A DNA stretch of 33,754 bases from Dehalococcoidia bacterium (lineage in GTDB: Bacteria > Chloroflexota > Dehalococcoidia > Dehalococcoidales > W693): positions 1 to 33,754 of the forward strand of contig DUFE01000087.1 in assembly GCA_011170385.1 (NCBI GenBank), in the 5' to 3' direction. The notes below the pieces were generated by a model, which was not told the origin of the DNA, searched no databases, and saw only the letters and a program-made list of their open reading frames with translations. Each line of letters opens with the position of its first letter. Within the stretch, counting starts at the first letter, position 1. The position numbers and the translations under genes were made by a program. This document shows positions 1,217 through 29,839 of this stretch, piece after piece.

Positions 1217-1226
1217 AATACCATAT

Positions 1227-1626: not shown

Positions 1627-1681
1627 CGTTATTTAATTATAAAGGGCTATTTGATTGATATATTATACTATTGTGATGATG

Positions 1682-1711
1682 TTGACAATAAATATATGAT
1701 TGCCTTATTAT
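1682..1711 (+). promoter_or_regulatory. Candidate sigma70-type promoter for hisF
   Basis: TTGACA (1682-1687), 18-nt spacer, TATTAT (1706-1711), about 60 nt upstream of the hisF ATG. Confidence 0.35.
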
Positions 1712-1773
1712 GGAATACGGTAAGCAATTTCCTATATAACGTTATCGTAATTAAAGTTAGATATGGGGGTAGA

Positions 1774-2544
1774 ATGGAGAAAGCAGTAAAGGTTATACCG
1801 TGTTTGGACATCAAGGAGGGAAGAGTGGTCAAGGGGGTCAGGTTCGTTAACCTTAAAGACGCCCGCGATCCAGTGGAGGCGGCAATCGCTTATTGTCAGC
1901 AGGGAGCCGATGAGCTGGTCTTCCTCGATATAGCGGCTACGGTAGAGGGTAGAGGCACTATGCTTGAATGGGTCAGGAGGGTTGCCGATAAAGTTACTGT
2001 TCCCTTTGCCGTTGGCGGCGGCATCAGAAATACTGATGATATGAAAGCCCTGCGCCAGCTCGGCGTCGATAAGGTATCGATAAACACGGCGGCGGTGAGA
2101 GAGCCGGCGCTGATAAAGAAAGCCAGCCAGCAGTTCGGTAAAGAGAAACTGGTGGTAGCCATCGACGGGCGAAAGAACAAACCGGGCAGCGGTTTACCCA
2201 GACTGGAGGTGGTTGTTAGCGGCGGCAAGGAAGCGACGGGTATGGATATCGTCGATTGGGCAAAGATGGTTGAGAGGCTAGGTGCCGGCGAGATACTGCT
2301 TACCAGCAAGGACGCCGATGGAACCAAAGACGGCTATGACATAGAGATGACGCGGGCGGTGGCGGAGGCGGTAACGATTCCAGTAACAGCTTCCGGCGGC
2401 GCCGGCAAGCTGGAACACCTGTATCAGGCTGTCGTCGAAGGCAAGGCTTCGGCGGTGCTGGCGGCATCCATCTTTCATTTTGGCGAAATATCTATCCCGC
2501 AGGCGAAGCAATACCTCAAAGAAAAGGGCATTGCCGTGAATTAA
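1774..2544 (+). CDS. hisF: Imidazole glycerol phosphate synthase cyclase subunit
   Basis: MEKAVKVIPCLDIKEGRVVKGVRFVNL...GADELVFLDI...SGGAG is classic HisF. The start is set at ATG 1774 (GGGGGT RBS) rather than the track start at 1588, which adds an AT-rich non-homologous extension overlapping the Smr gene. Confidence 0.95.
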   Translation: MEKAVKVIPCLDIKEGRVVKGVRFVNLKDARDPVEAAIAYCQQGADELVFLDIAATVEGRGTMLEWVRRVADKVTVPFAVGGGIRNTDDMKALRQLGVDKVSINTAAVREPALIKKASQQFGKEKLVVAIDGRKNKPGSGLPRLEVVVSGGKEATGMDIVDWAKMVERLGAGEILLTSKDADGTKDGYDIEMTRAVAEAVTIPVTASGGAGKLEHLYQAVVEGKASAVLAASIFHFGEISIPQAKQYLKEKGIAVN

Positions 2545-2565
2545 ATAAATACAGGAAGGTAAAGT

Positions 2566-4161
2566 ATGAATCTACAAAGACCAAACGCCAACGACGCTAC
2601 CCGAACCACCAACCGCTCTAAGAGCATCGTGCCGATGAGCGGGCTATGTACCCGCTGTCTGGACGGCTGCACAGGTAACTGCGAGGTGTTTAAAGCCTCC
2701 TTCCGTGGGCGGGAGCTTATTTACCCCGGCCCGTTCGGAGAAATAACTGCCGGGGGTGATAAAGACTACCCGGTAGACTATTCTCACTTCAGCATACACG
2801 GCTATGCCATGGGGGCTAATGGACTTCCCGAGGGAGTAGTCGGCGACCCGGATACGGCTACCTTCCCGGCTGTTGATACGGAAACGGAATACGGCTGGGA
2901 TATCAAGGTAAGAATGAAGGTACCAATATTCACAGGCGCCCTCGGCTCTACGGAGATAGCGCGAAAGAATTGGGAGCACTTCGCCGTAGGCGCTGCCATC
3001 AGCGGTATAACCGCAGTCTGCGGCGAGAATGTCTGTGGTATCGACCCACAGCTTGAGCGCAATGCCGACGGCAAGGTTACGCTGGCGCCGGATATGGACC
3101 GGCGAATAGAAATCTACCGGCGCTACCATAGCGGCTATGGCGAGATTCTGGTGCAAATGAATGTAGAGGATACCAGGCTGGGTGTAGCTGAATATGTTCT
3201 GAACAAGCATGGTCTGGACACCATAGAGCTAAAGTGGGGGCAGGGTGCCAAGTGTATCGGCGGCGAGATCAAGGTCAACAGCTTAGAGCGCGCTCTGGAG
3301 CTGCAGAAACGTGGCTACATCGTTACTCCAGACCCCTCCGACCCGCTCAACCAAGCTGCCTTTAAGGACGGCGCCCTGAAGGAATTTGAGCGGCACAGCC
3401 GCCTTGGATTTATAGATGAAGAAGGCTTCCTAGTTGAAGTGCAGCGGCTTCGCAACCTCGGTTTCAAGCGTATCACCTTAAAGACCGGGGCTTACGGGTT
3501 GCGTGAGCTGGCGATGGCTTTGAAGTGGGGCTCTAGGGCTAAGATCGACCTGCTGACCATAGACGGCGCCCCCGGCGGCACTGGAATGAGCCCGTGGCGG
3601 ATGATGGAAGAATGGGGTGTCCCCAGTCTGTATCTGCATTCGGCTGCATATAATTTTGCACGAAAGCTGGCTGATATGGGCGAGAGGGTGCCCGACATGG
3701 CTTTTGCCGGCGGTTTCAGCAGCGAAGACCATGTGTTCAAGGCACTGGCTCTGGGCGCACCATACACCAGGGCGGTGTGTATGGGCAGAGCGCTGATGAT
3801 TCCGGGTATGGTCGGCAAGAACATCGCTGCATGGTTGAAAGAAGGGAAGCTACCAAATACAATCAGTCAGTTCGGCTCGACAGTAGAGGAGATATTCATT
3901 AACTATGAGGATGTCAAGGGATTAGTCGGATCTGAGGAAATAAATAAGATTCCGATGGGCGCAATCGGTATTTACAGCTACTCGGAGAAGATAAGAATAG
4001 GATTGCAGCAGCTTATGGCGGGCGCCAGGTGTTTTAATATCCCGGCGATAACACGCAACGAGCTGATGTCCCTGACCGAGGAATGCACACGGGTATCCGG
4101 CATACCCTATGTCATGGATGATAGATATCATGAAGCAATGGCAATTCTGGAGGGCAGGTAA
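2566..4161 (+). CDS. FMN-binding glutamate synthase family protein (stand-alone GltB central-domain type) with N-terminal Cys cluster
   Basis: 531 aa. CTRCLDGCTGNCEV Cys motif, TIELKWGQGAKCIGGEIK, and IDGAPGGTGMSP resemble the Glu_synthase FMN/substrate domain. RBS GGAAGG upstream. Confidence 0.8.
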   Translation: MNLQRPNANDATRTTNRSKSIVPMSGLCTRCLDGCTGNCEVFKASFRGRELIYPGPFGEITAGGDKDYPVDYSHFSIHGYAMGANGLPEGVVGDPDTATFPAVDTETEYGWDIKVRMKVPIFTGALGSTEIARKNWEHFAVGAAISGITAVCGENVCGIDPQLERNADGKVTLAPDMDRRIEIYRRYHSGYGEILVQMNVEDTRLGVAEYVLNKHGLDTIELKWGQGAKCIGGEIKVNSLERALELQKRGYIVTPDPSDPLNQAAFKDGALKEFERHSRLGFIDEEGFLVEVQRLRNLGFKRITLKTGAYGLRELAMALKWGSRAKIDLLTIDGAPGGTGMSPWRMMEEWGVPSLYLHSAAYNFARKLADMGERVPDMAFAGGFSSEDHVFKALALGAPYTRAVCMGRALMIPGMVGKNIAAWLKEGKLPNTISQFGSTVEEIFINYEDVKGLVGSEEINKIPMGAIGIYSYSEKIRIGLQQLMAGARCFNIPAITRNELMSLTEECTRVSGIPYVMDDRYHEAMAILEGR

Positions 4162-4192
4162 CGCACTGGCAATGACCGTATTGCTATAGGAG

Positions 4193-5203
4193 GTGAAAGT
4201 GATAGTCGGAGAAGAGAGCCGGGAGGTGGAAAGGGCGAAGATAGCCATCCTGAGGATACTGGATGATCACCCGGGGGCTATAGGTAGCTATATCATCGCC
4301 AGACGCCTTAAAGATGAATATGGCATCGAACTATCGGAGAGAGCGGTCAGGTACCATCTACGGCTTTTAGACGAAAGAGGCTTGACCCAGAAGGTGAGCG
4401 GCCGCGACGGGCGGGATATTACCCGGAAGGGAATCGAGGAATTAAAGAATGCCATGGTCGCTGACAAGGTTGGCTTTGTCATCGACAGGATTGAGCTGTT
4501 ATCATACCTTACCACGTTTGACATAGACCGGCGGCAGGGTATGCTGCCGATAAATATATCGGTATTCCCACGCGAAAAGTTCAAGCCGGCGCTTAAGGCG
4601 ATGTCTGTCGCCTTTAAGGCAGAGATGTGTGTCAGCGACCTGGTGGCGGTGGTCGATGAGGGGGGAAAGCTGGGGGATGTACTAATACCCGAGGGCAATA
4701 CGGGTTTGGCTACCGTCTGCAGCATAATTATCAATGGGGCTCTGTTAAAAAAAGGCATACCTATGGATTCCAGGTTCGGCGGACTACTTCAAATGCGGGA
4801 AAGGGAGCCCTGGCGATTCACCGAACTGATAGAATACGCAGGCTCCTCTCTGGACCCATCGGAGATTATGATTGCCAGCCGTATGACCAGCGTAAGGGAC
4901 ATAATAAGCAGCGGTAATGGCAAGATGCTGGCTAACTTCCGCGAGGTTCCGGTGTTGAGTGTGCCGGTGGTGGGGGAGGTTATGAGTAAGCTGGGTGAAG
5001 CCGGTATTGGCGGCTTGACCATGATGGGCGAGGTGGGTAAGCCGGTGTGCGAGGTTCCGGTTGGGTTAAACAAGGTCGGTATGGTGCTTACTGGCGGCTT
5101 GAACCCGGTGGCGGCGGCAGTGGAGGCTGGCATAAGCACAACTAATATAGCTATGGGTGGACTTATCGATTATATAGAGCTTAAAAGCTTCTGGGATTTA
5201 TAA
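4193..5203 (+). CDS. NrpR-like (winged-helix + DUF128) nitrogen regulatory repressor homologue
   Basis: 336 aa. The N-terminal wHTH (ILRILDDHPGAIGSYIIARRLKDEYGIELSERAVRYHLRLLDERGL) is followed by one DUF128/NrpR-type domain. GTG 4199 fits the AGGAGG RBS (4188-4193) better than GTG 4193. Confidence 0.7.
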   Translation: MKVIVGEESREVERAKIAILRILDDHPGAIGSYIIARRLKDEYGIELSERAVRYHLRLLDERGLTQKVSGRDGRDITRKGIEELKNAMVADKVGFVIDRIELLSYLTTFDIDRRQGMLPINISVFPREKFKPALKAMSVAFKAEMCVSDLVAVVDEGGKLGDVLIPEGNTGLATVCSIIINGALLKKGIPMDSRFGGLLQMREREPWRFTELIEYAGSSLDPSEIMIASRMTSVRDIISSGNGKMLANFREVPVLSVPVVGEVMSKLGEAGIGGLTMMGEVGKPVCEVPVGLNKVGMVLTGGLNPVAAAVEAGISTTNIAMGGLIDYIELKSFWDL

Positions 5204-6829: not shown

Positions 6830-7468
6830 ATGAAAGATGCCGCCGAGGTTATCAGACGGCTCGAAAGGGAATACCCCGATGCCAGGATAGCGCTTAATTA
6901 TTCCACCCCCCTTGAGCTGCTGGTAGCCGTTGTGCTTTCAGCTCAATGTACGGATGAAGCGGTCAATAAGATAACACAGGGGCTATTTGAGAAATACCGC
7001 ACCGCTGAAGACTACGCCGGAGCGGACAGAGAGCATCTGGAGCAGGATATAAAGTCGACTGGCTTCTACCACAGCAAGGCAAAGAGCCTGATCGGCGCCG
7101 CCGCCAGTATAGTAGCCGATTTCGGAGGCGAGGTTCCCCGTACTATGGCAGAACTTACGTCGCTGCCCGGCGTCGGCCGGAAAACAGCCAACATAGTGCT
7201 ATATAACGCCTTTGGTATAACCGATGGCATCGCCGTGGATACCCACGTAAAGCGGTTATCGGGTCGCATCGGCTTTACCGCTAACAGCGAACCGGAAAAG
7301 ATAGAAAGAGATCTGATGGAGCAGATCCCCAGGGCAATATGGGGGGGTTTCTCATATCTTCTTATTGAGCATGGTAGAGCTATATGTATAGCTAGAAAGC
7401 CGAAGTGCGGGTATTGCATGCTTAAAGATATCTGCCAGTGGGAGCTAAAGGACAGGTTTTCGGGCTAG
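6830..7468 (+). CDS. nth: Endonuclease III (DNA-(apurinic/apyrimidinic site) lyase)
   Basis: 212 aa. HhH-GPD motif LPGVGRKTANIVL, catalytic D in GIAVDTHV, and C-terminal [4Fe-4S] CX6CX2CX5C (CIARKPKCGYCMLKDIC). Confidence 0.95.
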   Translation: MKDAAEVIRRLEREYPDARIALNYSTPLELLVAVVLSAQCTDEAVNKITQGLFEKYRTAEDYAGADREHLEQDIKSTGFYHSKAKSLIGAAASIVADFGGEVPRTMAELTSLPGVGRKTANIVLYNAFGITDGIAVDTHVKRLSGRIGFTANSEPEKIERDLMEQIPRAIWGGFSYLLIEHGRAICIARKPKCGYCMLKDICQWELKDRFSG

Positions 7469-8928
7469 AATGCGAACATGGCGGCAGCCATTTCTGCCAG
7501 CTTTATCAGCAACGACGGCGCAATTCCGAAGAGAAGTATACCGATACAGGTTATCGCAAGCACCAGCCTCAGGGCTGGCGAAGAAGGCACACCACTTTCG
7601 CCTGACGGCTTACCAAGCCACATCAGCTTAGCCACCCTTAGATAGTAGAAGGCGGAGATGGCGCTGTTGAGCACGGCGATAATAACCAGCCACAGCAGAC
7701 CGTTGGCGGCGGCACCGCTGAAGATGTAGAACTTGGCGATGAAGCCGGCAGCGGGCGGCAGACCGGTGAGAGAGATCAACCCCAGTGTCAGCACCAAAGC
7801 AAGCACAGGCGCCCGCTTGCCCATACCGGAGTAGTCTTTAATCAGGTCGCTATTAGCCTTGTTGGAGATGGCGATGATGGCGGCGAAGGCTGCCAGATCA
7901 GCAAGGGCGAAGGCGACCACGTAGAATAGGGTACTGCTCTGTCCGATGACTTCTGCAGAGCCGGACAATCCGGTAGTAGCCAGACTAATCATAATATAGC
8001 CGGAGTGGGCGATACCAGAGTAAGCCAGCATACGCTTGATATTGCTCTGCTGGATAGCCAGAATGTTACCCAGGGTTATACTGACGGCACTTAAGACGGC
8101 GAATGCCATGCCCCAGTCTATGCTCAGGGCTTCGGGCAAACCGAAGGCAGAGAAAAAGACACGCAGGATAACAGCAAAACCGGCAACCTTGCTGCCCACC
8201 GAAAGGTACAGCGTTACCGGCGTTGGTGCACCTTCATAAACATCGGGCGCCCACATATGGAAGGGAACGGCGGCAATCTTGAAGCCGAAACCGGCTATTA
8301 GCAACACCAACCCGAAGACAAGCCCGGGACTGGCAAGAAGGCTGGACGAAGCCGTCGTCTCCTGTATTGAGCGGGTGATTCCAGCCAGTTGTGTTTCGCC
8401 GGTAAAACCGAAGGTAAGTGCCATGCCGTAGAGCAGCACCGCCGAAGCGACTCCGCCGAGCAGAATATACTTCAACGAGGATTCGGTTGACCTGTTATCC
8501 TTAAGGAAGCCAACAAGCAGGTAGAAGGATATGGCGGTAAGTTCCAGGGATACGAAGACAGAGATAAGGTCAGTCGCTGCTGCCATCAGCATCATACCCA
8601 GTGTTGCAAACAGCAGCAGGGCGTGGTATTCGCCCTGGAAGCGAGCGAGCTTGTTGACATAATCTATGGAAACCAGGATAACCATAGCAGCGATGAACAG
8701 GAAAAGCAGCTTGAAAAAGATACCGAAATTGTCTACCGCCAGCATATCGTTGAAGATAGCCTGCGGGCTACCGTTCCATAGAGAGATGGCAAAACCAGCG
8801 GCAACAGCAATGCCGATTAGGCTGATGGCGGTGAGCACTCCCTTATGCCGGACGAAGAGGTCGAGCAGTATCACCGCTATTGCGGTTCCAGCCAGTACCA
8901 GTTCAGGTATAAACAGCTCAAGATTCAC
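7465..8928 (-). CDS. nuoN: NADH-quinone oxidoreductase subunit N
   Basis: 487-aa polytopic antiporter-like subunit and last gene of the nuo operon. Its stop overlaps the nth stop on the opposite strand (CTAG, 7465-7468). Confidence 0.9.
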   Translation of the reverse strand: MNLELFIPELVLAGTAIAVILLDLFVRHKGVLTAISLIGIAVAAGFAISLWNGSPQAIFNDMLAVDNFGIFFKLLFLFIAAMVILVSIDYVNKLARFQGEYHALLLFATLGMMLMAAATDLISVFVSLELTAISFYLLVGFLKDNRSTESSLKYILLGGVASAVLLYGMALTFGFTGETQLAGITRSIQETTASSSLLASPGLVFGLVLLIAGFGFKIAAVPFHMWAPDVYEGAPTPVTLYLSVGSKVAGFAVILRVFFSAFGLPEALSIDWGMAFAVLSAVSITLGNILAIQQSNIKRMLAYSGIAHSGYIMISLATTGLSGSAEVIGQSSTLFYVVAFALADLAAFAAIIAISNKANSDLIKDYSGMGKRAPVLALVLTLGLISLTGLPPAAGFIAKFYIFSGAAANGLLWLVIIAVLNSAISAFYYLRVAKLMWLGKPSGESGVPSSPALRLVLAITCIGILLFGIAPSLLIKLAEMAAAMFAF

Positions 8929-8937: not shown

Positions 8938-10437
8938 CTATCCTCCCCAGAAGGCAGCTACGGGCGCAATTCCGGAATTTATAACATCGGTCAGCACCAT
9001 CGGATAGACGCCGACCAGAATAATAGCGATAATAAACACAGCGCAGTAGCAGAACTCAAGCTTATCGGCGTCCTTGACGCCGCTGTATTTCTTCAGCACC
9101 GGACCTAAAAATACCCTCTGTATCAGCAGCAGCATATAGGCGGCGGCAAGGAGAATGCCAAGCATAGAGATTATGGTATAGATGTGAAGCCCGTCGACGG
9201 CTTTGCTAACGAAAGCGCCCAGGAAAACGCTGATCTCGGCGATGAAGCCGCTGGTGGCGGGTACGCCCATTGCAGCAATACCGCCGATGGTGAATATGGC
9301 AGCTATGGCAGGCATCTGCTTGCCCAGCCCGCCAAGCTTGCCTATATTACGCTCGCCGGTATTGTGCATCACCAGTCCGGTGACGGCAAACAGAAGCCCG
9401 GTAATGATACCGTGGCTGAACATCTGGAGGCTGGCGCCGACCAGGCTCAACTCTCCAAGGGCGAAGATACCCAGCAGCACGAATCCCATATGGCTTATGC
9501 TACTGTAGGCGATAAGCCTTTTCAGGTCGGTCTGCCTCAGTGTTACCGCTGCTCCGTAGACGATATTGATAGTCGCCAGTGCCAGTAGCAGTGGGGCGTA
9601 TTGCTGGGCGGAGTCCGGGAAGATACTCAGGCAAATGCGAATCATGCCGTAGCCACCCATCTTGATGAGCGTCCCGGCAAGGACGACGCTGACAGCCGTC
9701 GGGGCATCGGTGTGGGCATCGGGTAACCAGGTATGCAGAGGGAATACGGGCAGCTTTACAGCAAAGCCAGCCAGGAGCAGGAAGAACATTGGCGCTGCCG
9801 GAATAACCATCTGAGCCATAGCCAGACCGCTCTGCGAAAGCTCTATCATATCAAGGCTGCCGGTTGAGAAGTAGATGCAGAGGATACCGGCTAGCATCAG
9901 GGCGCTGCCAAACAGGGTATAAATAACGTACTTTATAGCGGAGTATTCCTTTCTGCCGGCTCCCCAGATGGAGATGAGGAAGTACATCGGGATAACCTCT
10001 ATCTCCCAGAAGATGAAGAACAGCAGCAGGTCTAGTGAACAAAACACGCCCAGGATACTCGTCTCCAGCAGCAGCAGCCAGGCGAAATACTCCCGCACCC
10101 GTAGCTCGACCTTCCAAGAAATAAGAACCACCAGAAAACCGAGCAGGGCGGTTAAAAGCACCAGCGGCATGCTCAACCCGTCGACGCCGATGTGATAATC
10201 GGCGTTGATGGGTTCTATCCAGGCTGCCATCTCCTGAAACTGTACTGCCCCCGCCATCCCCGCTGAGCGGTCAAAGGCACAGAACAGCACCAGGGACAAA
10301 ACCAGCGGAATGAAGGTGAAAACGGCGGCGATGTACCGGATAAGCCTTGCCGAAAGACCCGGCACCATAGCGATGACGATAGCCCCTGCGACCGGTAGAA
10401 ATATTATGATCGATAGGCAGTTAAAGTCCAATTTCAA
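8938..10437 (-). CDS. nuoM: NADH-quinone oxidoreductase subunit M
   Basis: 499-aa antiporter-like subunit (HTWLPDAHTDAPTAVSVVLAG motif). Position between nuoL and nuoN. Confidence 0.9.
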   Translation of the reverse strand: MKLDFNCLSIIIFLPVAGAIVIAMVPGLSARLIRYIAAVFTFIPLVLSLVLFCAFDRSAGMAGAVQFQEMAAWIEPINADYHIGVDGLSMPLVLLTALLGFLVVLISWKVELRVREYFAWLLLLETSILGVFCSLDLLLFFIFWEIEVIPMYFLISIWGAGRKEYSAIKYVIYTLFGSALMLAGILCIYFSTGSLDMIELSQSGLAMAQMVIPAAPMFFLLLAGFAVKLPVFPLHTWLPDAHTDAPTAVSVVLAGTLIKMGGYGMIRICLSIFPDSAQQYAPLLLALATINIVYGAAVTLRQTDLKRLIAYSSISHMGFVLLGIFALGELSLVGASLQMFSHGIITGLLFAVTGLVMHNTGERNIGKLGGLGKQMPAIAAIFTIGGIAAMGVPATSGFIAEISVFLGAFVSKAVDGLHIYTIISMLGILLAAAYMLLLIQRVFLGPVLKKYSGVKDADKLEFCYCAVFIIAIILVGVYPMVLTDVINSGIAPVAAFWGG

Positions 10438-10452: not shown

Positions 10453-12345
10453 CTATCCCCATATCAGCAGGCTAATGACAATAGCCAGCACGCCCAGTAT
10501 GATAAATAAGCCGTATAGCTGGAGCTGCCCGCTTTGAGCCCTCCTGACGGAATTACCGATATCCACCACTGTATCCGCCACGCCATTCACCGCCCCGTCG
10601 ATAACTTTACTGTCCAGTAGCTTCATACCAGCGAAGAGCCTGTCGGAGAGCAATCTTTGCCCGATAGCATCCTCGTAAAGCTCGTCCATCCAGTATTTCT
10701 TGGAGAAAAGGACGTATAATGAGCGGAAGAACCATGCAATGCGATGGGGGGATATCCACTTTGCGCTGTACATGGCATAAGCCAGCAGTATACCGCTGCC
10801 TGCCATCGCCAGTGAGATCCAGGGTAATGGGTGAGACAGTATGCCGAAGAAGCCCTCGGTAAAGCTATGGCTTTCGCCATGCCCCAGTAGATGGCTGAAG
10901 CCGCCGGTTGCGTTAAACCAGCCTGAGACGACAGCAAGCACCGCCAGCACCACCATCGGCACCACCATAACTGGCGGCGATTCGTGGGGCTTTTCGCTGC
11001 CGCGGTATTCGCCTCCGAAGGTCATAAAGACCACGCGGAACATATAGAAGGCGGTCATAAAGACAGTAATCATCGATAACACGAAAAGAAGCGTGTTCTC
11101 GGACAGGGCGCTGGCAAGTATCTCATCCTTACTCCAGAACCCGGCCAGCGGCCAGATACCAGCGATGCTTAACGATGCGATAAGAAAGGTGGCGTAAGTC
11201 CAAGGCATCACCTTTCGCAACCCACCCATAAAACGCATATCGAATGTCTTGGTACCGTGGTTGACGCTTCCTGCCCCAAGGAATAAAAGAGCCTTAAAGA
11301 AAGCGTGATTGAACAGGTGAAAGATGCCGATAGCCACACCGCCGACACCCAGTCCCAGCATCATATAACCAAGCTGGCTGATGGTAGAGTAAGCCAGCAC
11401 TCTTTTAATATCATTCATCACCAGCCCCATGGTGGCGGCGAAGATGGCGGTAAAACCGCCGATATAGGCTACGATGGACAGGGCTTCGGGCGAATGCTCG
11501 AACAGCGGGAACATGCGGGCGACCAGAAAGACACCGGCGGCTACCATCGTGGCGGCGTGAATAAGGGCGCTGACAGGAGTCGGACCCTCCATAGCGTCAG
11601 GCAGCCAGACGTGCAGCGGGAATTGCGCCGATTTACCGGCGGCTCCTAAAAATATGCCTATGGCAGCCCAGGTGAGAGTGGCGCTACCGATGGCACCGGC
11701 TACGGCATAACCGTGAAGCTGGGAGACATCAAGCGTCCCCTTGCTAAAGAATAGAACCAGTATCGCCGCCAGAAAGCCGAAATCACCAAGGCGGGTGACG
11801 ATAAAGGCTTTCTTGGCTGCCCTGGCTGCCGCCGGGCGATGGAACCAGAAGCCGATCAGCAGATAAGAGCACAGACCCACCAGCTCCCAGAAGACGTACA
11901 TTAACAGCAGGTTATCGACCATTACCAGCCCCAGCATAGCGGTGGTGAAGAGCGACATATAGACGTAGTAGCGATGGTAACCGGGATCACCGTGCATGTA
12001 ACCCTGCGAATATATCTGCACCATAAGGCTGACGGTGGTAACGACGATACACATTATCACCGTCAGCATATCTATCGTCAGCCCGAGATGAATGTTGATA
12101 GAGCCCTCGATGATAAGCCAGTTGAAGTCCGGAATTATAAGCTCATGCGAGGGCGTGTTGAGCAGGCTGGTCAACAGCCACAGCGACAGGATAAGAGAGC
12201 CGGCAACGGCGCTGATGGTGATATAGCCGCTTATCCTTGGGCTGTTATTGAGGAAAGGCTTGATAAACAGCGCAATAAGTACGAACGATATCAGCGGCAG
12301 CAGGAATATCATCCATACCAGACTGTTTGGTATTATCGCTTCCAT
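10453..12345 (-). CDS. nuoL: NADH-quinone oxidoreductase subunit L
   Basis: 630 aa, the longest antiporter-like subunit, with a C-terminal lateral-helix region (HVWLPDAMEGPTPVSALIHAATMV). Confidence 0.9.
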   Translation of the reverse strand: MEAIIPNSLVWMIFLLPLISFVLIALFIKPFLNNSPRISGYITISAVAGSLILSLWLLTSLLNTPSHELIIPDFNWLIIEGSINIHLGLTIDMLTVIMCIVVTTVSLMVQIYSQGYMHGDPGYHRYYVYMSLFTTAMLGLVMVDNLLLMYVFWELVGLCSYLLIGFWFHRPAAARAAKKAFIVTRLGDFGFLAAILVLFFSKGTLDVSQLHGYAVAGAIGSATLTWAAIGIFLGAAGKSAQFPLHVWLPDAMEGPTPVSALIHAATMVAAGVFLVARMFPLFEHSPEALSIVAYIGGFTAIFAATMGLVMNDIKRVLAYSTISQLGYMMLGLGVGGVAIGIFHLFNHAFFKALLFLGAGSVNHGTKTFDMRFMGGLRKVMPWTYATFLIASLSIAGIWPLAGFWSKDEILASALSENTLLFVLSMITVFMTAFYMFRVVFMTFGGEYRGSEKPHESPPVMVVPMVVLAVLAVVSGWFNATGGFSHLLGHGESHSFTEGFFGILSHPLPWISLAMAGSGILLAYAMYSAKWISPHRIAWFFRSLYVLFSKKYWMDELYEDAIGQRLLSDRLFAGMKLLDSKVIDGAVNGVADTVVDIGNSVRRAQSGQLQLYGLFIILGVLAIVISLLIWG

Positions 12346-12358: not shown

Positions 12359-12670
12359 TCACCATTTCATAAGATCTATCTTGGTTACGTCTATCGTCTC
12401 GCGTCGGCGATAGATGGCTATGATTATCGCCAGTCCGACTGTCGCTTCGGCGGCGGCGACCACTATGATAAATATGGTAAAGACCTGCCCGGTCAGCAGT
12501 GCCGGCACAACATAGCGTGAAAAGGCAACCATAGCGATGCTGACTGCTCCCAGCATAACCTCGATGCTCATCAGGATAACGACGGCGCTCCTCCTGGATA
12601 GCGCCCCATAGAGCCCGATGGCGAAAAGCACCGAAGACAGTATTAAAAAGTGTTCCAGTCCCAGTGTCAT
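12359..12670 (-). CDS. nuoK: NADH-quinone oxidoreductase subunit K
   Basis: 103 aa with 3 TM helices and a conserved mid-membrane Glu pattern (AAAEATVGLAII). Confidence 0.9.
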   Translation of the reverse strand: MTLGLEHFLILSSVLFAIGLYGALSRRSAVVILMSIEVMLGAVSIAMVAFSRYVVPALLTGQVFTIFIIVVAAAEATVGLAIIIAIYRRRETIDVTKIDLMKW

Positions 12671-12672: not shown

Positions 12673-13161
12673 CTATTTCTCTCTCATAAGAACGATGGCT
12701 CCAATTATAGTCGCCAGCAGAAGAATCGCGGCGATCTCCACCGGCAGTATAAACCCGCCCTCGGTGAAAAGACTGTTAGCCAGCTCGGCGGTGGTCGGTT
12801 CGGTGGGAGGCAAACCAGATACCTGCCACGGAGTCCTGACGATGGCGAAAACGGCAACCCCCAGAAATAGCGTACAGGCGGCGATGACGGGGAATTGTAG
12901 CTTGTTAGGCAGGCTGCCCCGTTCGACCTCGCGGGTAAGCATAATTGCCAGAATAATCAATATAGCTATGGCACCGACGTTAATCAGTATCTGTACCGCA
13001 GCCAGAAAGTCGGCGCTTAAAGTAACAAAGATACCGGCTATGGATAGAAAGCAGAGGATTAGGCACAGCGCCGCCCGGAAGATGTTACGCAGGCGGACGA
13101 CGGCTATCGCCGATACTACAGCTGTTGTAGCCAGTAGCCAGAATGCAATCTCTAATCCCAT
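12673..13161 (-). CDS. nuoJ: NADH-quinone oxidoreductase subunit J
   Basis: 162 aa with NuoJ-like TM pattern (FLAAVQILINVGAIAILIILAIML). Position between nuoI and nuoK. Confidence 0.85.
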   Translation of the reverse strand: MGLEIAFWLLATTAVVSAIAVVRLRNIFRAALCLILCFLSIAGIFVTLSADFLAAVQILINVGAIAILIILAIMLTREVERGSLPNKLQFPVIAACTLFLGVAVFAIVRTPWQVSGLPPTEPTTAELANSLFTEGGFILPVEIAAILLLATIIGAIVLMREK

Positions 13162-13171: not shown

Positions 13172-14953
13172 TTACAAGTCTCTGTTGATTAGTAGTGTCT
13201 GTTCGGGCAGAGTCTTTTCGATCTCTGGGCGGAAATAGCCGCTGGGCTTCCGTACCTCCGGCGTTAGAAGCTCCTCCTTACTCAAGGTCTGCTCGACGAA
13301 GCGATAGGTTCCCCGCTCGTAGCTATAGCCCATAAACAGGGCGTCGAACGGGCAGGCTTCGACGCATAAGCCGCAGTAGATGCAGGAACCGCCCTTAAGT
13401 TGATATTTCTCAACTTCATAGGTCAGGTCGCACTGCAGGCAGCGTTCGGTTTCTGCAAGCGCCGATTCTTTATCCCAGCCAATCTCAACGCCATCGAAGC
13501 TGTCCAGCCGCTGCTGGTGAGGGATGGCGGATGTTTTCGGGCGCAATCCCTCGCGGGGACCACCTTTGCGGTCCGTTATCTCCTCCGGTAGCGCCAGCGT
13601 TTCATCTATTATGCCACTGCCGCCCAGGTACTTATCTATGGATATCGCTGCCTGGCGCCCCTGGGCGATAGCTTGGATGACCGTTGCCGGGCCGAGCACG
13701 GCATCACCGCCGGCGAAGATGCCCTTGCAAGCGGTAGCCAGCGTGTCCTGATCTGTTTGAATGGTGTTGCCGCGTCCGGTGTCCAGCTCGAACTTTTCGG
13801 GCAATTTAGGGCGCTGGCCGATGGCGGATATTATATTATCCAGCTCTATGACAAAATCGCTGCCTTCTATGGGTTCCGGTCGCCGCCGTCCGCTGGCGTC
13901 TTCTTTACCCAGCTTCATACGGACGCACTCTAGTTTAAGGCATTTGTTATCGCCGGTGACCCTGGTCGGCGCCACCAGGAAGAGAATCGTTATGCCCTCG
14001 TCAAGAGCCTCCTCTATCTCCTCCGGGCTTGCCGGCATCTCGGCGCGGGTACGTCGGTATATTATGGAAACATCTCTGGCGCCGAGTCGAAGGGCGGTTC
14101 GCGCCGAGTCCATAGCCGAATTACCGCCTCCGATAACAGCTACCCTGTTGCCCAAAACTATCTTTTTGCCCAGTTTGACCTCTCTCAGGAAGTCTATACC
14201 GCCAAGTATCCTGGGGTCATCCTCACCTTCGATACCCAGCTCGATAGCCTGGTGGGCGCCGATGGCAATAAAGACGGCGTTAAAGTCCTCTCGCAGTAGA
14301 CTTTCCGGGTTATCTACCCTGGTATCGGTGAGTATCTTGACGCCGGTTTTTTCTATCTCTCTTATATTATCGGTGAGTATCTTATCGGGCAGGCGGTATT
14401 CGGGGATGCCGTAACGCATCATGCCGCCCGGCTTCGGCAGTGCTTCAAATACAGTCACCTTGTGACCGCAGAGCTTTGAAAGATAATAGGCAGCGGTGAG
14501 CCCAGCGGGACCGGCACCGATAACCGCCACCTGTTTGCCGCTTGATGGCGCACGTTTTGACCTCTGCTTCCATACGCCGCTGTCGTTATCGACGGCGAAG
14601 CGCTTGAGCATTCGTATGGCGATGGGCTGGTCGATGAGGCTGCGGTTGCAGGATGATTCGCAGGAGTGGGCGCAGATATAGCCGCAGACCGAAGGAAACG
14701 GTATCTTTTCGCGGATTACGGCTACTGCCTCATCCGGCTTGTCCTGTGAAAGGCATCGGATATAGCGGGCGGCGTCCACGTGAGAAGGGCAGGCCTGGGT
14801 GCAAGGCGCCGGTATGAGCCCTTTCTCTCCCCTGTCGGAGGTCTCTATCTCTATGCATCCGTGGGGGCAGTTGCGTGCACAGGTATAACAGCCTATGCAG
14901 CTATCCTGTGACCAGGCGAGTATGTTGCCGCGGATTCGTCTGGATACGGTCAA
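13172..14953 (-). CDS. nuoI: NuoI (2x[4Fe-4S] subunit) interrupted by a ~470-aa GltD-like Fe-S/FAD/NAD(P)H oxidoreductase module
   Basis: Single uninterrupted 593-aa ORF. NuoI motif 1 is CIGCYTCARNCP (aa 19-30). A GltD/DPD-type Fe-S region follows (APCTQACPSHVD...VCGYICAHSCESSCNR). The Rossmann motifs are VAVIGAGPAGL (FAD) and VAVIGGGNSAMDSARTALRLGA + IIYRR (NAD(P)H), with the FAD motif GIFAGGDAVLGPATVIQAIAQGRQAA. NuoI motif 2 is CIYCGLCVEACP (aa 524-535). The conserved NuoI N-terminus continues in frame upstream to about 15043 (GNGIIKGLAVTLKHLLFRRPITTQYPEQR) without a canonical start. Confidence 0.85.
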   Translation of the reverse strand: MTVSRRIRGNILAWSQDSCIGCYTCARNCPHGCIEIETSDRGEKGLIPAPCTQACPSHVDAARYIRCLSQDKPDEAVAVIREKIPFPSVCGYICAHSCESSCNRSLIDQPIAIRMLKRFAVDNDSGVWKQRSKRAPSSGKQVAVIGAGPAGLTAAYYLSKLCGHKVTVFEALPKPGGMMRYGIPEYRLPDKILTDNIREIEKTGVKILTDTRVDNPESLLREDFNAVFIAIGAHQAIELGIEGEDDPRILGGIDFLREVKLGKKIVLGNRVAVIGGGNSAMDSARTALRLGARDVSIIYRRTRAEMPASPEEIEEALDEGITILFLVAPTRVTGDNKCLKLECVRMKLGKEDASGRRRPEPIEGSDFVIELDNIISAIGQRPKLPEKFELDTGRGNTIQTDQDTLATACKGIFAGGDAVLGPATVIQAIAQGRQAAISIDKYLGGSGIIDETLALPEEITDRKGGPREGLRPKTSAIPHQQRLDSFDGVEIGWDKESALAETERCLQCDLTYEVEKYQLKGGSCIYCGLCVEACPFDALFMGYSYERGTYRFVEQTLSKEELLTPEVRKPSGYFRPEIEKTLPEQTLLINRDL

Positions 14954-15047
14954 CCTTTGTTCGGGATACTGGGTGGTGATGGGACGGCGGAACAGAAGGT
15001 GCTTCAGCGTTACCGCCAGCCCCTTGATAATGCCGTTGCCATAGTGC

Positions 15048-16139
15048 TTAAAGCCCAGTACTGTTGCCTCCCAGCCTAAAGAATTTCGACCAGATGAGTA
15101 TCAGGGCTGCCATTATAACCAGGCTGGATATGATTATCACCAGCGATGACGCCTCCTGGAAGAAAACGACCTGCATGCTGGTTAGGAGCAGGTTTATCAG
15201 TGCCAGGGGCAGCAGGAACTTCCAGGCGAAAGCCATAACCTGGTCTATCCTGAAACGTGGTATGGTAGACCGCACCCAGACGATAAGGGAGAATACAGCG
15301 ATTACCTTTATGATAAACCAGAGGAAGGGCGGCAGAAAAGGTCCCTTCCAGCCGCCGAGGAAGAGAGTGGTTATTATAGCGGATGAAGTGAGCGCCTCGG
15401 CGTATTCCATAAGGAAAAACGTTGCGAACTTCATACCGGAATATTCGATGTTATAACCGGCGACGATCTCCGAATCGGCTTCAACCAGGTCGAACGGGGT
15501 ACGGTTTATCTCTGCCAGTGAGCCGATGAAGAATATTAAAAACCCTAATGGTTGCAGCAAGATGAAGGGAACGGTCTGGGCTTCGACAATATCGTTCAAT
15601 GACAGCGAGCCGGCGATGAGAACGACGCCGACGATGGACAGCACCAGCGGGATTTCGTAGCTAATAAGCTGCGCCACGTCTCGCATTGCCCCGATGAGGG
15701 AATATTTATTATATGAGCCCCAGCCGGCCATAAAGATGCCGATAGAAGCCACCGAACTGACGGCAATGATGTATAGAATGCCGATGTTGAGGTCTACCAG
15801 CAAAGCGTTGCCCTGTAACGGGATTACGGCAAACATCATAAATACCGGGGCAAGGGCGATGATAGGCGCCAGCCAGAAGACGATTTTGTCCCCCTTTGAG
15901 GGAACTATATCCTCCTTGGTCAATATCTTAAGAACATCCGCTACCGGTTGAAGGAGACCGAAGGGACCGGCGCGATTAGGTCCCAGGCGCACCTGGAAAC
16001 GCCCTATCAGCCGTCGTTCGTACCAGATGAAGAACATAACCATCAGCAGGATAAAGGTGATTATCATGCCTGCAAATAGCAGTAGATGCAACCAGAAGTT
16101 GCCCGACCAGAGTAATTCCTGTGGAGCGAATTGCATCAT
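15048..16139 (-). CDS. nuoH: NADH-quinone oxidoreductase subunit H
   Basis: 363 aa. ERRLIGRFQVRLGPNRAGPFGLLQPVADVLK is the NuoH/ND1 signature. The start overlaps the nuoD stop (TAATG). Confidence 0.95.
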   Translation of the reverse strand: MMQFAPQELLWSGNFWLHLLLFAGMIITFILLMVMFFIWYERRLIGRFQVRLGPNRAGPFGLLQPVADVLKILTKEDIVPSKGDKIVFWLAPIIALAPVFMMFAVIPLQGNALLVDLNIGILYIIAVSSVASIGIFMAGWGSYNKYSLIGAMRDVAQLISYEIPLVLSIVGVVLIAGSLSLNDIVEAQTVPFILLQPLGFLIFFIGSLAEINRTPFDLVEADSEIVAGYNIEYSGMKFATFFLMEYAEALTSSAIITTLFLGGWKGPFLPPFLWFIIKVIAVFSLIVWVRSTIPRFRIDQVMAFAWKFLLPLALINLLLTSMQVVFFQEASSLVIIISSLVIMAALILIWSKFFRLGGNSTGL

Positions 16140-17242
16140 TACCTATCCACCTCTCCCAGGCAGATATCTATGCTGCCGAAGGTGACTATGGCATCGGCGA
16201 GCTTCCAGCCAATAATCATATCCCGCAACGCTGTCAGGTTGATGAGTATAGAAGACCTGACATGGAAGCGGTAGGGCTTCTCCGAACCGTCGGAGACTAT
16301 ATAAAAGCCCAGTTCGCCCTTGGGAGCTTCTATGTGGGCGAAGGCTTCGCCTACCGGCGGTCTAAAACGCAGCGGTACTTTATTCAATACATTGCCTGAT
16401 GGCAGCTGCTCTATAGCCTGATTCAGAATGCGGATACTCTGGTACATCTCGGCTATCCTTACGCGGTACCGGTCGTAGCAATCACCAGCGCTGCCCGTGG
16501 GGATGTCGAAATCGAAGCGGTCGTAAACGGAGTAGGGGTCGGCTTTGCGGATGTCCCATTTAACGCCACTGGCGCGCAGTACCGGCCCACTGGCGGAGCT
16601 GCTGATTGCCAGCTTCTTTGGCAGGACACCGATACCCTTTGTGCGTGCCAGAAGTATCTCATTATCAGCCAGGAGCTGATCGTATTCGGCGATAAAGCCT
16701 GGGAAATGCTTCAGTAATTTCTTTAGAGCCGGAAGAAACTCGTCAGGGATATCGTGGCTGACGCCGCCGAAACGCATATAGTTATAAAGTAGCCTCTGGC
16801 CGCAGACCATATCGAAAAGGTCGAGAATCCTCTCCCTTTCGCGGAACATATACAGGAATGGCGTCTGGAAAGCGCCGAGGTCGTTAGCCAGCGAACCGAC
16901 GGCAATCAGGTGGCTAGCGATGCGCTGTAGCTCTGCCATGATGACGCGCAGGTACTCGGCACGCTCCGGCACCTGTATACCGGCAAGCTTTTCCACCGCC
17001 ATAACGTAGGATAGCTCGTTGCTCATTGAAGCAATATAATCCATACGGTCTGTAAATGGAATGTTTTGCTTGTAGGTGCGGTTCTCGGCGAGCTTTTCTA
17101 TACCGCGATGTAGATATCCGAAGACCGGCTCAAGCTCGACGATAACCTCGCCATCCATGGTAGCCAGCATTCGGAAGACTCCGTGGGTGCTGGGGTGCAG
17201 AGGACCCAGGTTGATGACGAATAGCTCGGTCTTAAGAGCCAT
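16139..17242 (-). CDS. nuoD: NADH-quinone oxidoreductase subunit D
   Basis: 367 aa. [15 protein letters not shown]...[12 protein letters not shown] and the C-terminal DICLGEVDR motif. Confidence 0.95.
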
Positions 17243-17681
17243 CGGTAAAATCCTTTCGCAGTGGGTGCCCCTGGAATCCCTCCCAGAGGAAAATACGTTT
17301 CATATTTGGGTGGCCTTCGAAATTTATACCCATAAGGTCGAATATCTCGCGCTCCTGGAGTTCGGCTCCCCGCCACAGGCTTACCACGGAGGGGATGGTG
17401 GGGGTTTTTCTATCGGTACACCTGGTCTTTATCACCAGGCTGTGGTTGTGCTTTAAAGACACCAGGTGATAGACAAGCTCGAAATAATCGCAGTAATCGA
17501 TTGCAGTGATATGAACCAGGTAGTTGAAATTTAGTCCGGGCTCGTCCTTGAGGAAGGCAGCAATGTCGAAAAGGAACTCGCTCTTAACCAAAAGGCTATC
17601 CGGGTTTAGTCCGGCAATGCCTGCGGCAAGACTTTTATCCAGTCTGGCGGCTGCTTCGCTGCCGGCAAGAGCCAGTGTCAT
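17232..17681 (-). CDS. nuoC: NADH-quinone oxidoreductase subunit C
   Basis: 149 aa. [31 protein letters not shown] is the NuoC/30-kDa signature. ATGA overlap with nuoB. Confidence 0.9.
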
Positions 17682-18277
17682 TTCTTCTCCTCGACGAAGC
17701 TTTTTCTCCTTTTTATCTTCTCACGAAGCATCTGTATCCCGTAAAGCAGGGCTTCGGGGCGTGGCGGGCAGCCGGGCACATAAACATCCACCGGCACTAT
17801 GTGGTTATAGCCGGGTACCACCGAATAGGAGCCCTTGAAAACGCCGCCGCTGATGCCACACGCCCCCATGGCGATTACCCATTTAGGCTCTGCCATCTGG
17901 TCATAAAGACGCTTTATCTGGGGAGCCATCTTCCAGGTAAGGGTACCAGCGGTAATCATCAGGTCTGCCTGGCGCGGTGAAGCGCGGACGATTTCCATAC
18001 CGAAACGTGAGATATCAAAACGGGATGCGGCGGCGCCCATGAACTCGAAGGCGCAGCAGGCAGGGAATGAAATTACCGGCCATATGGCGGTGCGCCTCGC
18101 CCAGTTAAGAGCGGCGTCCACTGTGGTCAGTAGTATGTTCTGGCGTAGTTCGTCGGTCAGCCAGCTGTCCGGGTCGGGAATGATATCGCGGCTTCTTTCT
18201 TTGAGCTCCTCTATCATCTTTCCCTCGTGGATATCGAGCTCGGCGCCGGAATAGACGTGACCTTTTCCTACTTCCAT
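17678..18277 (-). CDS. nuoB: NADH-quinone oxidoreductase subunit B (N2 cluster subunit) with ~45-aa N-terminal extension
   Basis: 199 aa. The ACCAFEF...GACGISGG...PGCPPRPE cysteine pattern is that of NuoB. The ATG at 18277 overlaps the nuoA stop by 10 nt. Confidence 0.9.
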
Positions 18278-18639
18278 TCGAGGACCTTCTTACGCCAGGC
18301 ATAGATATAGCCGATAACTACAATCGATATAAATATAAGGACGACAAAAAAGCCAAATTCACCTAGCTGTTTGAGATCTACAGCCCAGGGGTAGAGAAAT
18401 ACTACCATAACATCCAGGGCGATGAGCATCAGGGCATAGAAATAATAGCGGAAGTTGAACTGAACCCATGACCTGCCGATAGTCTCCATACCGCATTCGA
18501 AGGGCGTGTACTTTATCGGGTTGGGCTTGCTGGGTATGATCTTGATGAGTCTAAGTAGAACTGGGAGAAAGACAAGCAGAGAGGCAAAGAGGATTGAAAT
18601 CACTGTAAACAGTGCGATGTAACCAAAGTTTTCTAGCAA
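18268..18639 (-). CDS. nuoA: NADH-quinone oxidoreductase subunit A
   Basis: 123 aa with 3 TM helices, FECG and [14 protein letters not shown] motifs. TTG start follows the AAGGAG RBS. Confidence 0.9.
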
Positions 18640-18855: not shown

Positions 18856-20031
18856 ATGAAAATAGTGGTCATCGGTATGGGGCAGTGCGGCGGTCGAATT
18901 GCAGACGAGTTCGCCCGTCTGGGTAAAAGGGCGCGCAGCCTGCGGGGCATAGATATAATCGTTGATACTTTTGCAGTTAATACGGATTCTACCGACTTGG
19001 TGGGGATGCACACAATAGGCTCCGATTATCGCCACCGGATACTGATAGGTGCCGGCACAACCCACGGGCACGGTGTCGCAAAAATGAACGATATCGGCGC
19101 CGAGATAGCCAGGGAAGATGCCGATAAGGTGCTGGATGCCATAAAATCGGCGCGTCAGCTGTATGAATCGGATGCCTTCCTTCTGATCGCAGCGACTGCT
19201 GGAGGCACCGGATCTGGGGCGACACCGGTAATAGCCAGGTTTCTCAAGGAGCGTTATGCTGATAAGCCGGTGTATACCATGCTGGTCTTACCCTTTGAGC
19301 ATGAAGAGATGAACGAGGAAAGGGCATTGTATAACACAGCGGTATGTCTTAAATCTACGTATCAGGTTGCCGATGCCGTTATCCTGATAGATAACCAGCG
19401 GTATGTCAGGAAGGACTACTCGCTACAGAGCAATATGATAGAGATAAACAGGCTGATCGCAGAGCCATTCTTCGATCTGCTGTGTGCCGGTGAAGAGAAA
19501 AAGGTAAAGCATATCGGCGCCAAGGTGCTGGATGCAGGTGATATAATACAGACCCTTTGCGGCTGGACGGCTATCGGTTATGGCGAGTTGAAGTTGCCGC
19601 TGATAACCTTTCCTACGGATTGGAGCGGGGACTTTCGCAAACGCGGTAATCGCACGCACAAGGGTATAGAGGCAATGGATCAGGCATTGTGCGACCTGTC
19701 AATTGAATGCGATCCACAGGACGCTAATAGGGCGCTCTACCTGCTTTCCGCTCCGGTTAAGGAGATGAATATGGAGCTGGTCAAAGAGCTCGGTGATTAT
19801 CTTAAGGGCTTCGCCCCGCAAGCTGTCATCAGAGACGGGGACTATCCTCGTGAGAAGGGCTTGCTGGATGTTACGGTTATATTGTCGGAGTTAAGCGATG
19901 TCGCCAAGGTGAGGGATTACTACACCCGCTCCTCTGCGCTGGCTAAAGAGATGAAGGTAAGGACGAAGAACAAGGAAAGCAAAGCCGTGCTGGCGGAAGA
20001 AGCTGGCAAGGATATACCGACGCTGTTTTGA
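18856..20031 (+). CDS. Tubulin/FtsZ-superfamily GTPase, CetZ/tubulin-like rather than canonical FtsZ
   Basis: 391 aa. IVVIGMGQCGGRIADEF (tubulin/CetZ-type GQxG), ATAGGTGSGATPV (tubulin signature), VILIDNQRY (DN where FtsZ has PND), and a C-terminal tail ending GKDIPTLF. Confidence 0.8.
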   Translation: MKIVVIGMGQCGGRIADEFARLGKRARSLRGIDIIVDTFAVNTDSTDLVGMHTIGSDYRHRILIGAGTTHGHGVAKMNDIGAEIAREDADKVLDAIKSARQLYESDAFLLIAATAGGTGSGATPVIARFLKERYADKPVYTMLVLPFEHEEMNEERALYNTAVCLKSTYQVADAVILIDNQRYVRKDYSLQSNMIEINRLIAEPFFDLLCAGEEKKVKHIGAKVLDAGDIIQTLCGWTAIGYGELKLPLITFPTDWSGDFRKRGNRTHKGIEAMDQALCDLSIECDPQDANRALYLLSAPVKEMNMELVKELGDYLKGFAPQAVIRDGDYPREKGLLDVTVILSELSDVAKVRDYYTRSSALAKEMKVRTKNKESKAVLAEEAGKDIPTLF

Positions 20032-27328: not shown

Positions 27329-27376
27329 CAAAATTTCTTTATATCTCTTTTTTGCTTAACAAATTGCTTAACTTTT

Positions 27377-29838: not shown

Positions 29839-29839
29839 G

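Follow-up and report, generated by a model that had tools for sequence, protein, structure and literature searches.

Complex I combines a conserved Q/P-module core with an exchangeable input device, which is NuoEFG in the 14-subunit enzyme, FpoF in Fpo, and NdhS/ferredoxin in NDH-1 (PMC3144371, PMC11238625). What donates electrons to the widespread 11-subunit form without NuoEFG has been asked since 2011 and was unanswered in a study from 2024 (PMC3144371, PMC11238625). Neither surveys of the 11-subunit complex nor studies of Dehalococcoidia, which treat the donor as unknown, mention the gene fusion that is the subject of this study (PMC3144371, PMC11238625, PMC5736913). This fusion, which we name nuoI*, is located on the minus strand (13172..15058) of a 33,754-nucleotide stretch of DNA from a Dehalococcoidia bacterium (contig DUFE01000087.1, assembly GCA_011170385.1), the whole of which we refer to as the window. 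It encodes a NuoI protein in which a GltD/StnC-type module is nested between the two ferredoxin motifs. The module, with predicted sites for NADPH, flavin adenine dinucleotide (FAD) and two [4Fe-4S] clusters, is a candidate input device for a headless complex I, written into NuoI itself. Our preferred reading, to which we assign a probability of about 0.65, is that the NuoI* complex is a reversible proton-pumping NADPH:menaquinone oxidoreductase whose input module is a single subunit, with the cassette nested in NuoI.

Two described systems come closest to it. In the StnABC transhydrogenase of Sporomusa, the subunit StnC carries a GltD-like domain (aa 102-565) as an insertion in a NuoG-like fold. 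This domain binds FAD and NADPH as well as two [4Fe-4S] clusters, one of which (C7) has three cysteines and Lys170 as ligands; it is non-bifurcating, passes single electrons to a linear chain of iron-sulfur (Fe-S) clusters, and works in both directions (PMC10482914). The other system consists of the mbx-like operons of Thermotoga and proteobacteria, where a flavoprotein related to GltD takes the place of NuoI (PMC4758237). The first-pass annotation of this DNA had regarded the architecture as undescribed. Our literature search, which was incomplete so that an earlier mention is possible, turned up neither a NuoI-GltD fusion described for a genuine nuoABCDHIJKLMN operon nor an account of two insertion topologies; the idea as such has a precedent in the Mbx-like substitute for NuoI (PMC4758237). 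The nested cassette itself is known already, from StnC and NfnABC, and what seems new is its version in a Nuo operon and the existence of two topologies.

A flavoprotein module nested between the ferredoxin motifs of NuoI

The open reading frame (ORF) of nuoI* is uninterrupted from 13172 to 15058, and its parts follow one another in the order NuoI N-terminus, ferredoxin motif 1, GltD-type Fe-S/FAD/NAD(P)H module of about 460 residues, ferredoxin motif 2, and NuoI tail. The motifs that the first-pass annotation had quoted from an uninterrupted ORF are all present where it had placed them, and the nested domain order that it proposed was confirmed with hidden Markov models from Pfam and NCBIfam. 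In the numbering of the 593-residue ORF counted from the first TTG (13172-14953), Pfam detects Fer4_6 at 13-34, Fer4_20 at 49-123 (E 6e-18), Pyr_redox_2 at 141-432 (E 6.5e-36) and Fer4 at 523-539. NCBIfam families of the GltD type match with E-values from 1e-146 to 1e-56, and the NuoI models are confined to residues 513-566 (TIGR01971 at 513-562, with PRK05888 also matching the C-terminal part). The NCBIfam family PRK12771, which gives a colinear match, probably represents a generic ferredoxin with the nested cassette. All other residue numbers in this text refer to the 623-residue translation of 13172-15043. In that numbering, the NuoI, TYKY and NdhI chains of the PDB match the flanks only, at residues 5-73 and 543-597 (E down to 3e-16).

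The N-terminal segment (..GLAVTLKHLLFRRPITTQYPEQRLTVSRRIRGNILAW..; 14900..15058) is specific to NuoI and matches residues 40-111 of 8b9z_I, and also 6hum_I, over residues 5-73. It is followed by ferredoxin motif 1, CIGCYTCARNCP (14864..14899), with C49, C52, C55 and C59. The Fe-S subdomain of the module (Fer4_20; 14585..14809) contains PC81TQAC85P and, further on, C124, C128, E129, C132 and K147. The FAD and NAD(P)H Rossmann domains (13658..14533) carry VAVIGAGPAGL, VAVIGGGNSAMD...IIYRRTRAEMPA and GIFAGGDAV. A linker and a segment resembling the N-terminus of GltD come next (13430..13657); this region ends in RC535LQC538 and aligns with StnC/NfnABC up to ...RCLECGC. Ferredoxin motif 2, CIYCGLCVEACP (13349..13384), with C554, C557, C560 and C564, is supported by Pfam and by TIGR01971 of NCBIfam. 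The last part, comprising the NuoI C-terminal tail and the stop codon (13172..13348), matches residues 90-141 of 2fug_9 with E 3e-16 over residues 543-597, as well as TYKY and NuoI chains.

NuoI* thus shares with canonical NuoI/Nqo9/TYKY the N-terminal YPxE...RxRG, two CxxCxxCxxxCP motifs, the C-terminal tail and a gene position between nuoH and nuoJ. It differs in that the insert of ~460 aa replaces the short tip of a hairpin, resulting in a protein of ~628 aa instead of ~160-220 aa. An AlphaFold2 model based on an alignment of 107 sequences had a mean predicted local distance difference test score of 89.7 and a predicted template modelling score of 0.86. Confidence was low only in the N-terminal ~35 residues, which is to be expected because this segment packs against other subunits. 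In the model, strands 64-74 and 540-549 flank the insert, which places the module at the predicted tip of the NuoI inter-motif hairpin. The proposal that the insertion sits in the loop between the motifs agrees with the NuoI-matching flanks, the cassette between the motifs and the strands on either side.

The first-pass annotation had described the module as GltD-like. Its Fe-S, FAD and NAD(P)H hallmarks are indeed present, but plain GltD is not the best description, and the RCLQC that follows the flavin domain had been overlooked. In a PDB sequence search, the large subunit of NfnABC was the best match (9bov_A, E 2.5e-127, residues 65-540 against 90-568; also 9n5u_A), followed by StnC (8oh5_C, E 2.4e-114), and the alignments to 9bov_A and 8oh5_C both extend through ...RCLECGC. 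NfnB, GltD and DPD rank after these (E 1e-91 to 1e-36), and a Foldseek search with the model returned the same top PDB ranking (9bov_A, 8oh5_C, 9n5u_A). The cassette is ~45-50% identical over ~470 residues to StnC of Sporomusa ovata and to NfnABC (8oh5_C, 9bov_A, 9n5u_A), and shares with them PCxxxCP, CxxxCxxxC, the FAD and NADPH domains and RCLxC in the same order, a conserved Lys, and its nesting within an Fe-S domain of the host. The position of RCLxC after the flavin domains and the nesting in a host Fe-S domain are the order of the StnC/NfnABC subtype. Judged by these features, the module is a cassette of the StnC/NfnABC type and not a plain GltD. The N-terminal modules of GltD, NfnB and DPD have the same fold and cofactor motifs, but in the canonical proteins RCLxC is N-terminal and stands 4 residues before CxxxCP, so that the order in NuoI* is permuted. 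The segment with C535 and C538 (..RLDSFDGVEIGWDKESALAETERCLQC), which we take to resemble the N-terminus of canonical GltD of Escherichia coli, would provide the remaining two cysteines of the distal cluster of the module.

The alignment also equates K170 and R239 of StnC with K147 and R217 of NuoI*, and IIYRRT of the NADPH site is common to both. By this correspondence, the module has every cofactor ligand of an NADPH input domain already known to be nested and non-bifurcating. StnC differs in three respects: its cassette lies in a NuoG-like domain that is part of a soluble, bifurcating complex, whereas here the host is NuoI of a membrane complex; it has a Gly where most sequences of the NuoI* family have Cys120; and its downstream partner is a HydBC-like module instead of the Q-module. 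The arginine next to the FAD is found in NfnB as well (R201), and NfnB/NfnL are clear homologues (4ylf_B, E 1.6e-91; 5jca_L), which raises the possibility of NfnB-like electron bifurcation or confurcation at the module's FAD, the oxidation of NADPH being coupled both to quinone, via NuoI, and to a low-potential acceptor such as ferredoxin. We consider this improbable, since the closest relatives are of the StnC/NfnABC type and the FAD of StnC has been shown to be non-bifurcating (PMC10482914). Moreover, the window contains no gene for an NfnA-like [2Fe-2S]/FAD partner, and with both clusters of the module on one linear path there is no second exit route. NfnB-like bifurcation was therefore rejected as the principal explanation in favour of linear electron input from NADPH.

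The start of nuoI* required a separate analysis. Its reading frame is open upstream as far as 15093, and the part upstream of TTG 14953 encodes the canonical, conserved NuoI N-terminus (GLAVTLKHLLFRRPITTQYPEQRL; HYGNGIIKGLAVTLKHLLFRRPITTQYPEQRL); this rules out TTG 14953 as the true start. The stretch contains no ATG, GTG or TTG. Homologues begin with MRFKHYGNG or LRFKHYGNG (one of them, P0001, is likewise called with a Leu start), and a CTG at 15058-15056 is preceded by GGAGG at a distance of 8 nt (window 15056-15071) and gives an overlap with the nuoH stop codon (15050-15048). Together, these observations make CTG 15058-15056 the probable start, giving a protein of ~628 aa with an expected mass of ~69 kDa. 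The end coordinate assigned earlier, 15043, was ~15 nt short. The extent of the gene, 13172..15058, is therefore based on the ORF, the upstream frame, the GGAGG, the homologue N-termini and the domain searches.

Homologues of NuoI* were searched for among 5.8 billion proteins. The matches listed include 120 clusters that are 57-88% identical to the window protein; 116 of them are full-length (614-648 aa) and have the same architecture, and the other four are truncated. The clusters derive from assemblies of NCBI, ENA, JGI and Logan. Named members are few and belong to Chloroflexota, Dehalococcoidia or Dehalococcoidales; their present annotations say no more than "FAD-dependent oxidoreductase" or "formate dehydrogenase beta subunit". 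A motif scan of the 120 sequences found YPxEK, a ferredoxin motif, PCxxxCP, the FAD glycines, RCxxC and a ferredoxin motif in essentially all full-length members, and the RCxxC pair stands 15 residues before motif 2 in 120/120. We refer to this family as type A. In an alignment of 107 sequences, again 57-88% identical to the window protein, all eight NuoI cysteines (C49, C52, C55, C59, C554, C557, C560 and C564) are invariant, as are T23, Y26, P27, R36, R38 and G39 of the N-terminal segment. The same holds for seven cysteines of the insert (C81, C85, C124, C128, C132, C535 and C538) and K147, for G176, G178, P179 and G181 of the FAD motif, and for GGG(N)xAxD and Y329-R330-R331. E129 and C120 are conserved in at least 90% of the sequences without being invariant.

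These data bear on the possibility that nuoI* is an artefact or a decayed gene, that is, a chimeric join of a soluble GltD-like gene with nuoI fragments, or a non-functional fusion in a decaying operon. The window comes from one assembly, and the conserved N-terminus lacks a preceding canonical start codon, although the CTG after GGAGG is a plausible one. The cofactor ligands, however, are invariant, and no discontinuity in G+C content was found across the gene. The operon with nuoI* is also present on the independent contigs L001, L083 and L084, the last of which is 525 kb long and has a wider neighbourhood in common with the window (a CetZ-like gene, DegV, MoaA/MoaC, endonuclease III and superoxide dismutase). 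Every genomic context checked for type A homologues is this same nuo operon. The first-pass annotation had asked whether the assembly could be chimeric; since over 115 full-length clusters, drawn from a variety of sources and assemblers, share the fusion and independent contigs carry it, a chimeric assembly is ruled out, and we attach next to no weight to an artefact of either kind.

A second insertion topology and other hosts of the cassette

The distribution of the cassette was studied by two further searches. One was a search of representatives of 1.84 billion protein clusters, in which the whole Dehalococcoidia family is one 50%-identity cluster and which gives no counts per lineage. The other was a contig scan that returned at least 600 stretches with the cassette, mostly in unrelated hosts, and that is not a census of taxonomic distribution; 3 of 80 loci taken from these stretches adjoin nuo-like genes. 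Among the cluster representatives, the cassette (from ~45-79 to 540-570 of the query) is found in hosts of ~430-1480 aa. The NuoI N-terminus accompanies it in just two of the best 150 representatives, P0121 and P0144.

P0144 represents a second kind of fusion, type B. In these proteins the NuoI N-terminus (..YPxEK..PRFRG) is followed by the cassette (PPCxxxCP ... RCLSC), and then by motif 1, the loop, motif 2 and the tail. Type B comprises P0144, about 40 relatives (616-680 aa), and the Bipolaricaulota locus L075; the relatives of P0144 that bear names are metagenome-assembled genomes (MAGs) of Actinobacteria, Actinomycetota or Firmicutes. The type B gene occupies the place of nuoI, in the order nuoA-B-C-D-H-I*-J-K-..., in L081 (Actinobacteria MAG), L082 (Firmicutes MAG) and L075 (Bipolaricaulota MAG). 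The operon of L081 (12655-21077) has five antiporter-like (Proton_antipo_M) genes as compared with the usual three. The NuoI fusion thus recurs in several phyla, every time in a nuo operon without nuoEFG in the visible region.

The spacing in type B is informative about the likely electron path. From RCxxC to the first Cys of motif 1 there are exactly 4 residues in 39/39 type B sequences. The first three cysteines of motif 1 are, presumably, ligands of cluster N6a, by homology with Nqo9 of Thermus thermophilus, whose ligand assignment reportedly goes back to Sazanov and Hinchliffe in 2006. In the usual arrangement, NuoG passes its electrons to N6a. As 4 residues are too short for a long distance, the predicted distal cluster of the type B module must adjoin the N6a equivalent.

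In the comparison with the window protein, at least 22 representatives with hosts other than NuoI outscore the type B representative. Because of this, and because the insertion sites differ, type A and type B appear to be independent recruitments of one mobile cassette. That a mobile cassette entered NuoI at least twice at two sites, type A in Chloroflexota and type B in MAGs of Actinomycetota, Bacillota and Bipolaricaulota, and that it thereby made a one-domain N-module that turns headless complex I into a proton-pumping NADPH:menaquinone oxidoreductase, would identify the donor in these lineages and make the input modules convergent and independent of NuoEFG. We give this joint proposal even odds.

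Nested cassettes are found in further Fe-S hosts, namely HdrA-like, RnfB-like and NuoG-like proteins, and in a NuoC-like subunit. The latter is encoded in an Ech-like cluster of six genes in a Bathyarchaeota MAG (L072, 6488-12831), which are antiporter-like, NuoH-, NuoB-, NuoC- and NiFe-large-subunit-like, and ferredoxin, with HypD nearby; the NuoC-like subunit fused to the cassette is 593 aa long and ends in RCWRCDWNE. From its gene order, this is a second way of joining the cassette to a complex-I-like Q-module. In Desulfosarcina alkanivorans (L032, 9482-11587) and Desulfocarbo indianensis (L080, 9398-11608), an RnfB-like N-terminus and ferredoxin motifs precede the cassette, which suggests Rnf-type complexes with a built-in NADPH module. 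HdrA-like polyferredoxin flavoproteins of 840-1490 aa, with the cassette after a ferredoxin motif, are encoded in L003, L005, L010, L013, L027, L029, L053 and L062; the reading frame in L062 has an in-frame stop codon. P0121, which represents a type A cluster of 46 members, and P0234 (Chloroflexota) have ACLECR or AFLEDL in the second Rossmann fold, replacing IYRRTR of the window protein. The substitution may signal a shift in dinucleotide specificity. In P0234, the NuoI N-terminus is missing and the C-terminus is a hydrophobic helix.

The host operon and its quinone module

In the window, nuoI* is part of the operon nuoA-B-C-D-H-I*-J-K-L-M-N, with all genes on the minus strand from 18639 down to 7465. 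These are nuoA (18268-18639), nuoB (17678-18277), nuoC (17232-17681), nuoD (16139-17242), nuoH (15048-16139), nuoJ (12673-13161), nuoK (12359-12670), nuoL (10453-12345), nuoM (8938-10437) and nuoN (7465-8928). The ten neighbours of nuoI* all match NCBIfam Nuo models, nine of them above the curated cut-off and nuoA below it. The gene lies between nuoH and nuoJ in the window and in L001, L075 and L081-L084. The first-pass annotation had noted that nuoE, nuoF and nuoG are absent from the operon; none of them was found within the 33.7-kb window, and no nuoEFG was found in L075 and L081-L084 within 10 kb of nuoI*, the homologue neighbourhoods covering 10 kb on either side.

The quinone module is intact. 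NuoD matches Nqo4 of T. thermophilus best (E 6.6e-113), then the NdhH proteins of cyanobacteria and plants, with MBS (2.8e-70) and MBH (8.1e-64) far behind. Its HPSTHG, RMDY and ..NDLG align with H38, Y87 and D139 of Nqo4, and position 135 is a Ser. For NUO11 enzymes, residues of the His38/Tyr87/Asp139 type have been discussed as markers of reactivity with quinone (PMC4758237). NuoB contains ACCAFEF with the tandem Cys, GACG and GCPP, which are signatures of the N2 site. The quinone residues and Nqo4 match of NuoD, together with the N2 ligands of NuoB, indicate that the host complex is a canonical 11-subunit, quinone-reducing complex I with an intact Q-module, and not an Mbx or Ech complex. 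An Mbx/Ech identity was rejected on these grounds and on that of the canonical nuo gene set.

The comparison with Mbx-like complexes is nevertheless instructive. In those of Thermotogae and some proteobacteria, the subunit in the NuoI position (NuoI/MbxN) carries an NAD(P)-binding flavoprotein of the GltD type (PMC4758237; bioRxiv 10.1101/322537), a likeness taken from published descriptions. However, their operons are of the Mrp/Mbx type, and remnants of the hydrogenase ligands persist in their NuoD homologues. The reaction proposed for these complexes is reduction of NADP+ by ferredoxin, with no quinone involved, whereas the operon here is nuoABCDHIJKLMN with signatures of the Q-site and of N2.

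This difference matters for the alternative in which the module is an output and not an input. The complex would then reduce NADP+, either by running in reverse (menaquinol and proton-motive force to NADPH) or as an ion-translocating ferredoxin:NADP+ oxidoreductase that takes up electrons from reduced ferredoxin at NuoI. The Mbx-like complexes of Thermotoga/Mesotoga with a GltD-related NuoI substitute are read as ferredoxin:NADP+ oxidoreductases (PMC4758237; bioRxiv 10.1101/322537, citing Schut 2013), and ferredoxin has been proposed as the donor for other 11-subunit complexes (PMC11238625). StnC is reversible (PMC10482914), and the Bathyarchaeota Ech-like cluster also carries the cassette, fused to its NuoC-like subunit. 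The gene set of the window, however, is canonical nuo and not Mrp/Mbx; the quinone-ligand residues are retained in NuoD, whose matches to quinone-reducing enzymes are far better than those to MBH and MBS; and NuoB has the tandem-Cys N2 site. We therefore regard NADP+ reduction as the chief rival of our preferred reading, less likely than quinone reduction by NADPH but with an appreciable share of the probability.

Several other features of the window were recorded. Divergent from nuoA lies a gene for a tubulin/FtsZ-family protein with a CetZ_C domain (18856-20031, plus strand), which is also a neighbour in L084 (4991-6166); the CetZ_C family has been described from archaea. A HisF-like gene, a gene for a Glu_synthase-domain protein and one for an NrpR-type regulator are arranged in a row at 1588-5203 (plus strand). 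NrpR-type regulators form a nitrogen repressor family known from Euryarchaeota. A collagen triple-helix-repeat protein gene adjoins two adjacent tRNA genes (311-1015 and 1144-1303, minus strand). In the region 27254-32000, a tRNA gene (27254-27325) is followed by a stretch with a G+C content of 0.35-0.41, compared with ~0.53 elsewhere, whose ORFs 28553-29089 and 30342-31487 have no Pfam match; it may be an integrated element.

A candidate one-subunit input module for headless complex I

According to the reading that we prefer, a mobile cassette of the StnC/NfnABC type has come to occupy the tip of the beta-hairpin that joins the [4Fe-4S] motifs of NuoI. NADPH would donate a hydride to the FAD that the module is predicted to bind. 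Single electrons would leave via the proximal [4Fe-4S] cluster, with the putative ligands C85, two of C124/C128/C132, and K147 or E129, and would pass to a distal [4Fe-4S] cluster at the NuoI junction, tentatively assigned to C81, C535, C538 and one of C124/C128/C132. They would then continue through N6a/N6b of NuoI to N2 in NuoB, with the distances between clusters presumed to allow this, and reduce menaquinone at the NuoD/NuoH site, which would drive proton pumping by NuoL/M/N. The overall reaction would be reversible. The suggestion that the module is a self-contained NAD(P)H-oxidising input device, made in the first-pass annotation, is thus also the best-supported reading of the present data, and one that we infer.

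A number of points count against this scheme. TIGR01971 reaches 48.4 bits compared with a cut-off of 113 for the whole protein, and the PRK05888 models are below cut-off too; we ascribe this to the insert, which splits the profile so that only the flanks match. As the type A module sits at the end of a hairpin with ~10 residues per strand, the sequence does not compel it to lie near any particular NuoI cluster. The preference for NADPH is deduced from the YRR motif, which marks the site for the 2'-phosphate of NADPH, and homology to StnC. One Dehalococcoidia relative has been reported to have nuoEFG in a separate operon (PMC5736913), and nuoEFG or a canonical nuoI could likewise be present elsewhere in the genome studied here.

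Compared with FpoF, NdhS and NuoEFG, the input device proposed for NuoI* is one domain nested in NuoI and not a separate subunit, uses FAD instead of flavin mononucleotide or F420, and is probably specific for NADPH. For some anaerobes, NuoI* suggests an answer to the question of what feeds headless complex I, and the module makes the donor question directly testable. If the proposal is true, an NADPH-linked, FAD-based N-module would join NuoEFG, FpoF and NdhS/ferredoxin as a known input, which would bear on the modular assembly of complex I, and metabolic reconstructions of the abundant subsurface Dehalococcoidia would change.

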